NCBI RefSeq assembly: GCF_003334355.1
Contig: NZ_QOWP01000054.1
DNA from: Escherichia coli
Lineage (GTDB): Bacteria; Pseudomonadota; Gammaproteobacteria; Enterobacterales; Enterobacteriaceae
DNA: 11,358 nt
Direction: 5' to 3' (one strand)
Shown here piece by piece: positions 2,151 to 2,191 of the stretch (position 1 is the first letter of the stretch; every line of letters starts with the position of its first letter). The position numbers were made by a program, and so were the translations under genes. Under the pieces are notes generated by a model, which was not told where the DNA came from, did not search any database, and saw nothing but the letters and a program-made list of their open reading frames with translations.

Positions 2151-2191
2151 TCCACGGACCGCACTCTTGACATAAGAGTGCGGTCCGTGGA
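2151..2191. repeat. Perfect inverted repeat (18-bp arms, 5-nt spacer)
   Basis: TCCACGGACCGCACTCTT gacat AAGAGTGCGGTCCGTGGA. The arms are exact reverse complements and no T-tract follows on either strand. Confidence 0.9.

Follow-up and report, generated by a model that had tools for sequence, protein, structure and literature searches.

The non-coding DNA of Escherichia coli K-12 shows an excess of about 150-fold in long perfect inverted repeats, and the authors of that survey proposed that they arise by template-switch correction (PMC5941160). Template-switch mutation at quasipalindromes, that is, imperfect inverted repeats, has been demonstrated experimentally in E. coli (PMC7202029). The other described system to which the locus must be compared is ISEc11, whose 3′ non-coding region encodes a seekRNA that guides target choice (PMC11187229). 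The stretch of DNA analyzed here, referred to as the window (11,358 nucleotides of E. coli contig NZ_QOWP01000054.1), includes a 41-bp palindrome that had been singled out in a sequence-only reading. The analysis explains this eye-catching palindrome of the much-studied K-12 CP4-44/yoeA-cobU region as a relic with an ordinary explanation, and as a feature of a known kind.

Structure and setting of the palindrome

A repeat search of the window confirmed that 2151-2191 (41 bp) is a perfect inverted repeat with 18-bp arms and a 5-nt loop (Table 1), as the sequence-only reading had described it. It is the longest short-loop hairpin of the window, which holds no second copy of it, and no longer inverted duplication surrounds it since the inverted homology ends at the 18-bp arms. 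The view that such a structure is unlikely by chance was borne out: the analytic expectation for stems of at least 18 bp with loops of 3-10 nt is 1.2e-6 per window, and the longest stem in 200 shuffles of the window never exceeded 11 bp. Folding of both strands, suggested earlier as a check, produced very stable RNA structures (-43.7 kcal/mol for the + strand and -38.5 kcal/mol for the - strand, z about -8.5), and the value for the DNA fold was -24.4 kcal/mol (z -10.5). An 18-bp perfect GC-rich stem, stable on both strands, is what would be expected of an intrinsic terminator, but no U run directly follows the stem on either strand. The 3′ flank reads AAAACGGAGTTG (also given as AAAACGGAG) on the + strand and TACAACCAGAGA (also given as TACAACCAG) on the - strand. 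The palindrome was also absent from the output of the terminator scan of the window, in agreement with the earlier statement that it is not a standard terminator. The description of its surroundings as an AT-rich spacer was correct for the adjoining stretch, 1950-2100, where the GC content is 21-22%, but not for the palindrome, which is contained in a local peak of 53% GC (2100-2199).

The window corresponds to the E. coli yoeA(hma)-cobUST region. It is 100% identical to strain PSS-12 and nearly identical to K-12, and window position x corresponds to MG1655 coordinate 2,070,580 - x. The palindrome is located 206-246 bp upstream of the start codon of yoeA; strain U15A, among others, has the gene in intact form (715 aa; L012 6510-8657). 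Judged from an 87%-identical homologue, the native upstream region of yoeA stops at about 2050-2085. The closest homologues of the receptor outside E. coli are found in Kluyvera, Salmonella and Citrobacter (72-87% identity), and the Salmonella homologue adjoins haem-utilisation-type genes (ChuX/HutX, radical SAM, periplasmic binding protein). The sequence TGTAATGATAATTATTTTC (1983-2001), some 40-55 bp upstream of where the receptor gene begins, agrees by eye with the Fur-box consensus GATAATGATAATCATTATC at 15/19 positions and overlaps the divergent promoter-like site listed in Table 1. A search for the Fur-box consensus at up to 3 mismatches returned no match, this best by-eye site having 4.

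On the other side of the palindrome, cobU starts at 3617, and yoeH, the K-12 pseudogene at the palindrome, is one piece of the mobile-element debris found between the yoeA/hma receptor gene and cobU. The MG1655 record places yoeH and yoeG within "cryptic prophage CP4-44", and the tnpC remnant of Table 1 is a part of yoeG, annotated in MG1655 as 2688-3220. In some E. coli strains it is microcompartment (EutP/PduV-type) genes that adjoin cobU instead. K-12 does carry an IS5 in this interval, as the sequence-only reading had suggested, but the element is located at 3223-3226, about 1,030 bp downstream of the palindrome, and the K-12 IS2 is located at 1640-1644. The palindrome was consequently rejected as an IS5 target or an island boundary. 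Farther away, a perfect 12-bp hairpin, AAAAAGCCTGCT / AGCAGGCTTTTT (7012-7039), has A and T runs flanking both sides and resembles a bidirectional terminator between ldtA, which ends at 6990, and the first of three identical tRNA genes.

Table 1. Features of the window, ordered by position
Feature	Position	Strand	Remarks
IS629/IS1203-like terminus	1-77		IS debris at the left end of the window
Partial IS2	79-1072		IS debris at the left end of the window
yoeA 5′ fragment (TonB-dependent receptor gene)	1445-1945	-	
Sigma-70 promoter-like site, TTTTCA-18-TATAAT	1995-2024	+	Promoter scan
Candidate further decayed transposase remnant (I-S...D...I-H-G)	2105-2150	+	Frame differs from the downstream part
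Small hairpin, CTGAC-tcgt-GTCAG	2121-2134		17 bp left of the palindrome
Palindrome, left arm	2151-2168		TCCACGGACCGCACTCTT; 18 nt, 100% complementary to the right arm
Palindrome, loop	2169-2173		GACAT; between the arms
Palindrome, right arm	2174-2191		AAGAGTGCGGTCCGTGGA; 18 nt
ISEc11-like (IS110-family, IS1111-group) transposase C-terminal remnant	2161-2328	+	tblastn, phmmer, K-12 annotation
Decayed 3′ non-coding region and right end of the ISEc11-like element	2329-2595	+	About 68% nt identity to the L005 3′ end
IS66-family tnpC remnant, N-terminal third, stop-ridden	2688-3131	+	tblastn 47% over 152 aa, E 2e-22
IS4-family transposase fragment (K-12 yeeH)	3125-3313		Directly upstream of cobU together with the next feature
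C-terminal remnant of cobalamin-biosynthesis gene	3322-3465		
tRNA gene (Rfam)	7049-7121	-	Identical to the next two; tRNA-Asn in matching genomes
tRNA gene (Rfam)	9457-9529	-	
tRNA gene (Rfam)	11278-11350	+	

Transposase remnant and intact relatives

Homology places the palindrome within the 3′ part of a dead ISEc11-like transposase gene, the pseudogene yoeH. The region 2161-2319 aligned in tblastn (49% identity, E 1e-7) with the last 53 aa of the transposase of L005, an intact IS110-family element carried by plasmid CP057768. The L005 protein has the Pfam domains DEDD_Tnp_IS110 and Transposase_20, and NCBI gives its close relatives the name "ISEc11 family". A phmmer search against 1.84 billion representatives returned one match (E 1e-4), an 82-aa IS110 C-terminal fragment of the ISEc11 type. 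Since the MG1655 record annotates yoeH (b4641) as exactly 2161-2319, the palindrome straddles the annotated 5′ end of the pseudogene. The alignment to the L005 transposase passes colinearly through the loop and the right arm, and therefore the palindrome lies within the coding remnant rather than at an element end; at an IS terminus the homology would stop at the arm. Of the suggestion that the palindrome is a relic of a mobile-element end, then, the relic survives and the end does not. As a part of pseudogene yoeH, the palindrome should not be annotated as a terminator, an operator or a mobile-element end.

Only the last 56 or so transposase codons remain, interrupted by in-frame stops at 2173-2175 and 2266-2268 and followed by the ancestral stop at 2326-2328, while the N-terminal 280 or so codons are absent. 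The remnant reads T-A-L-L-T-stop-E-C-G-P-W-K-T-E-L-K-K where the family has A-A-L-L-T-K-E-P-G-P-W-I-T-E-L-K-K. The right arm is homologous to the transposase K-E-P-G-P-W-I codons (15/18 nt match the E. fergusonii plasmid relative), and the outer part of the left arm, (A)TCCACGG, agrees with the I-H-G codons that are conserved in ISEc11-like transposases. Farther left, 2105-2150 is possibly a further decayed piece of the transposase gene, which would fit a frameshifting 10-nt deletion at the palindrome. Right-anchored alignments of the sequence left of 2150 to 7 relatives were mostly above the shuffle mean, the lowest nominal p in 21 non-independent tests being 0.015-0.02; unanchored local alignments of 2000-2150 to the relatives were not significant and no better than those of shuffles.

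The element continues downstream of the gene. Over 2287-2573 the identity to the 3′ end of intact L005 is 67.7%, and a stem-loop, GTATCAG...CTGATAC, is present at 2313-2339. A long 3′ non-coding region with a subterminal inverted repeat after it is found here as in the IS1111 group, of which such repeats are a hallmark. L005 has 13-bp subterminal inverted repeats, ATGAACGCATCCC / GGGATGCGTTCAT, and the remnant has a degenerate one at about 2577-2595 (GGTGAAAGGTTATGTCTAG, counterpart GGGATGCGTTCATATAGAG). The palindrome, located 135-177 nt upstream of the remnant stop and inside the coding sequence, is not where a seekRNA or bridge RNA would be expected. In a distant DNA search of 1946-3320 against plasmids, matches about 70% identical were found beside IS110- and IS66-family genes, and the ISEc11-like element had inserted into an IS66-family tnpC gene. 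The 270 bp that follow yoeH are unannotated in the RefSeq records examined. Nor do these records state what the present analysis identifies, namely that yoeH and this stretch form the tail of an IS1111-group element of the RNA-guided (seekRNA) type. A second long inverted repeat links the C-terminal coding remnant of the transposase to the 3′ non-coding region: its 17-nt arms, 2227-2243 and 2393-2409, lie 149 nt apart and are complementary at 15/17 positions. In the matching segments of L005 only about 10/17 positions agree by manual comparison. This repeat could be another partly "corrected" one or a piece of a long RNA structure.

The DNA of six intact relatives, from two Escherichia plasmids, Serratia fonticola, Xenorhabdus, an Enterobacterales endosymbiont and Proteus, was read at the homologous site. 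In all six a 63-nt segment codes for F-I-H-G-A-R-A-A-x-L-x-x-K-E-P-x-x-W-I-T-E (also given as F-I-H-G-A-R-A-A-A-L-L-T-K-E-P-G-P-W-I-T-E), and the roughly 120 close protein relatives all keep FIHGARAA(A/S)L..., with no deletion. The segment is an imperfect inverted repeat in each of the six. Its F-I-H-G codons (TTTATYCAYGG) are the reverse complement of its P-W-I-T codons (CCRTGGATAA), which produces a 10-bp outer stem (TTATCCAYGG / CCRTGGATAA) around a poorly paired interior of 41 nt; compared with the complement of the inner right arm, the inner left arm agrees at 3-4 of 11 positions. Folding of the E. fergusonii copy gave an imperfect hairpin (-14.5 kcal/mol, z -4.1).

Relative to this segment the window copy lacks 10 nt, and its arms pair at 18/18 positions. 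Its loop, GACAT, corresponds to GACCA, GACAA or GGCAA at the same place in the relatives. The inner 11 nt of its left arm, which stand for 21 nt in the relatives, are the exact complement of the right arm, and at 7/7 inner positions where the two arms of the closest relative disagree the window has one of the two bases and never a third. Beside the loop the left arm reads CTCTT, which is complementary to the K-E codons (AAAGAR) conserved in all relatives but matches the left arm of none of them. The reading frame differs across the palindrome, as it would after a 10-nt deletion, with I-H-G upstream and T-A-L-L-T downstream. The differences are clustered, they include the indel that brings the arms into register, and all of them raise complementarity.

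Among all collections searched, the nearest relatives of the element lineage are about 50-53% identical in amino acid sequence and 68-70% in nucleotide sequence, and for this reason the ancestral sequence at the palindrome was inferred from cousins. Searches for a closer relative included a 5-mer word search of 5.8 billion proteins, which produced no match, and tblastn against plasmids, where identity was at most 53%. The E. coli genomes showed no class of element copies at 80-95% identity, and one further remnant, in Serratia, was all that a single scan of genome contigs with the conserved 3′ hairpin motif yielded. A 5′-truncated remnant of this kind of element is present in Serratia marcescens MSU97 (L007 4045-4500). 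It has a deletion of roughly 10 nt in the same quasi-palindromic segment (ATTCACGGAGCGAGGGGCGC-ATGAAAGTGCCGGGGCCATGGAT), and no perfect palindrome was formed.

Origin of the perfect stem

The palindrome is probably a quasi-palindrome that was corrected by template switching inside a dead transposase gene, a by-product with no dedicated function. The starting point would have been an ancestor of the lineage in which the transposase gene included a quasi-palindrome with the 10-bp outer stem and the poorly paired interior. A nascent strand that had copied ...ATCCAYGG would have re-paired with the complementary CCRTGGAT of the opposite arm, copied about 11 nt of that arm, and then returned to its own template. 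Such a switch would replace about 21 interior nucleotides of the left arm by the 11-nt complement of the right arm, and the outcome would be a perfect 18-bp stem, a net deletion of 10 nt and a frameshift in the transposase gene. This mechanism is what we infer from the comparison with the relatives, and the neutrality of the product is argued from the absence of functional signals. The alignment of the left interior to the relatives is not unique. One trinucleotide of the window, GCA, matches the Ala codon in the left arm of the family, a coincidence with a probability of about 6% if there was a single left-from-right copying; if it is not a coincidence, two conversion events, one in each direction, are needed.

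Alternatively, the palindrome could mark the point at which the transposase remnant was truncated. The remnant would then end at the loop or just left of it, and the left arm would be a short inverted copy of the right arm made by fold-back or as templated filler during repair of the deletion that removed the rest of the element. This is consistent with robust transposase homology beginning only at about 2150-2155, with the failure of unanchored alignments of 2000-2150 to surpass shuffles, and with the end of the native upstream region of the receptor gene, which leaves about 70 bp of unattributed DNA. However, the outer left arm with its flank, TGTATCCACGG, matches TTTATCCACGG of two relatives at 10/11 positions and at the expected distance, and the right-anchored alignments hint at homology 15-40 nt further left. 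Furthermore, fold-back priming normally generates long inverted duplications, and here there is none beyond 18 bp. We consider this origin unlikely; its mechanism is again templated copying, in a variant form, and no function follows from it either.

Distribution, insertions and the question of function

The 41-mer was found in 2756 of 5426 complete E. coli genomes, with one site in each (the median of 2 "places" per genome represents the two strands of one palindrome); half of the genomes do not have it. Records of the plasmid and phage collections contained the palindrome region only where they carried this same locus. The possibility of a REP/MITE-like repeat was contradicted by these results, and the palindrome was rejected as a repeated element. 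A class of about 440 genomes is 95-99% identical, and the 4/4 genomes read from it carry an uncompensated change in the left arm, C2162T, the only common variant, which yields a G-U pair in the + strand RNA. The variant strains differ by about 1% over 474 bp, one of the differences falling in the stem, and the palindrome is conserved no better than its flanks. Roughly one eighth of the matching genomes begin only at 2158, since the right end of an IS3 abuts the left arm there and the DNA beyond is unrelated. A lineage derived from these genomes is deleted to 2202.

By the sequence-only reading, its idea would fail if the palindrome proved single-copy, poorly conserved and unassociated with insertion or deletion breakpoints, which is only partly the case. 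It is single-copy, but breakpoints do occur at it. In strain KE51 (L010 160-1510) an IS2 is present exactly in the loop as a simple insertion with the target duplication TGACA (2168-2172), and in a large clade an IS3 end is located inside the left arm at 2158/2159. Strain SB0258h1 (L013 2990-3005) has an IS629/IS1203-like end whose junction, at about 2126-2129, falls within the loop of the neighbouring small hairpin, about 22 bp left of the palindrome. This is the same end that is found at window 1-77, and the junction is an adjacent deletion that removed window positions 78 to 2125, approximately. Other breakpoints were found at 2335, 2342, 2358, 2530, 2628, 3009, 3223, 3321 and 3429. As the breakpoints are scattered through the whole 1.4-kb debris region, the enrichment at the palindrome is marginal. 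IS1397, an element of the IS3 family, inserts specifically into the loops of REP palindromes. A structural preference of IS3-family elements for the hairpin is plausible by analogy, and hairpin-prone DNA may attract their insertions as a side effect, although the case is anecdotal. The IS2 in the loop adds one small observation in favour of IS3-family elements choosing their targets by structure.

The hairpin may be transcribed because the promoter-like site at 1995-2024 points through the palindrome, which its transcripts would traverse about 120 nt downstream. For K-12, Shimada et al. 2014 (PMC3946193) reported a "constitutive promoter" (RpoD-holoenzyme site) and H-NS binding upstream of yoeH, and the hexamers and spacing of the 1995-2024 site equal those of the reported promoter. 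A functional RNA hairpin that stabilises this transcript, or that blocks read-through towards the debris and cobUST, would also agree with the very stable stem and with the wobble pairing kept by C2162T. Against this, the stem lacks a U-tract, the Rfam search found no family at gathering thresholds and only noise at E<=1 (plant miRNA, CRISPR repeat), and the downstream "gene" is a pseudogene. Half of the genomes do without the site and many lineages are IS-cut at it with no sign of replacement, while one transition that happens to keep wobble pairing is no evidence of selection. We regard a functional RNA hairpin as improbable.

A role at the DNA level, as a protein-binding operator or as a structure-dependent target hotspot of IS3-family elements that is possibly maintained, is in our judgment very improbable. 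Three different IS3-family ends within 45 bp, two of them in the palindrome and one in the loop of the adjacent hairpin, together with the precedent of IS1397, speak for a hotspot. However, the local excess over the scatter across the debris is marginal (about 4 breakpoints vs 1.3 expected), and being an insertion target is a consequence of structure and not a selected function. The 18-bp arms far exceed known operators and no regulator is encoded nearby. There is similarly little chance that the hairpin was co-opted, either as a U-tract-independent RNA roadblock or stabiliser or as a cruciform-prone DNA site that steers IS3-family insertions. If it were, the RNA version would keep cobUST and the Fur-type promoter region of the receptor gene insulated from one another, and the cruciform-prone version would explain the landing of IS2 exactly in the loop. 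Abutted IS ends or a circle junction were rejected, as the homology is colinear through the right arm. No evidence was found for the protein-binding site or for the RNA-stabilising stem-loop offered by the sequence-only reading, nor for any other function of the palindrome, considering the missing U-tract, the lack of an Rfam match, the single copy, the uncompensated C2162T and the genomes without the site.

The palindrome, most probably a corrected quasi-palindrome, is of little weight for cell biology. It provides a clear-cut case from nature in which an imperfect inverted repeat of a coding sequence was turned into a perfect palindrome once the gene was dead. The stable, extragenic-looking structure and the entry of an IS3-family element into its loop are reminiscent of REP/BIME units; unlike these, it is single-copy, unrelated to the REP consensus and derived from coding sequence. 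With Rho-independent terminators it shares a GC-rich perfect stem and a short loop, but it has no U-tract, its stem is about twice the usual length, and it is found inside a pseudogene rather than after a gene. The remnant around it resembles the ISEc11/IS1111-group elements (PMC11187229) in its transposase C-terminus, its homologue of the seekRNA region and its degenerate subterminal repeat, and it sits in an IS66-family element like its relative in L005. Unlike the members of this group, it is reduced to roughly the last 490 bp and interrupted by stops and a frameshift; its amino acid identity to the known members is about 50%, and the intact ones do not have the perfect palindrome. The closest likeness is to the repeats "corrected" by template switching in E. 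coli (PMC7202029; PMC5941160), in which an imperfect repeat is made perfect by a clustered change plus an indel; here too all changes are towards complementarity, in a sequence free of coding constraint. Compared with the classic quasipalindrome cases, the event is deduced from cousins about 30% diverged instead of being directly observed, and the interior that was swapped (21 nt to 11 nt) is larger than at the classic reporter hotspots.
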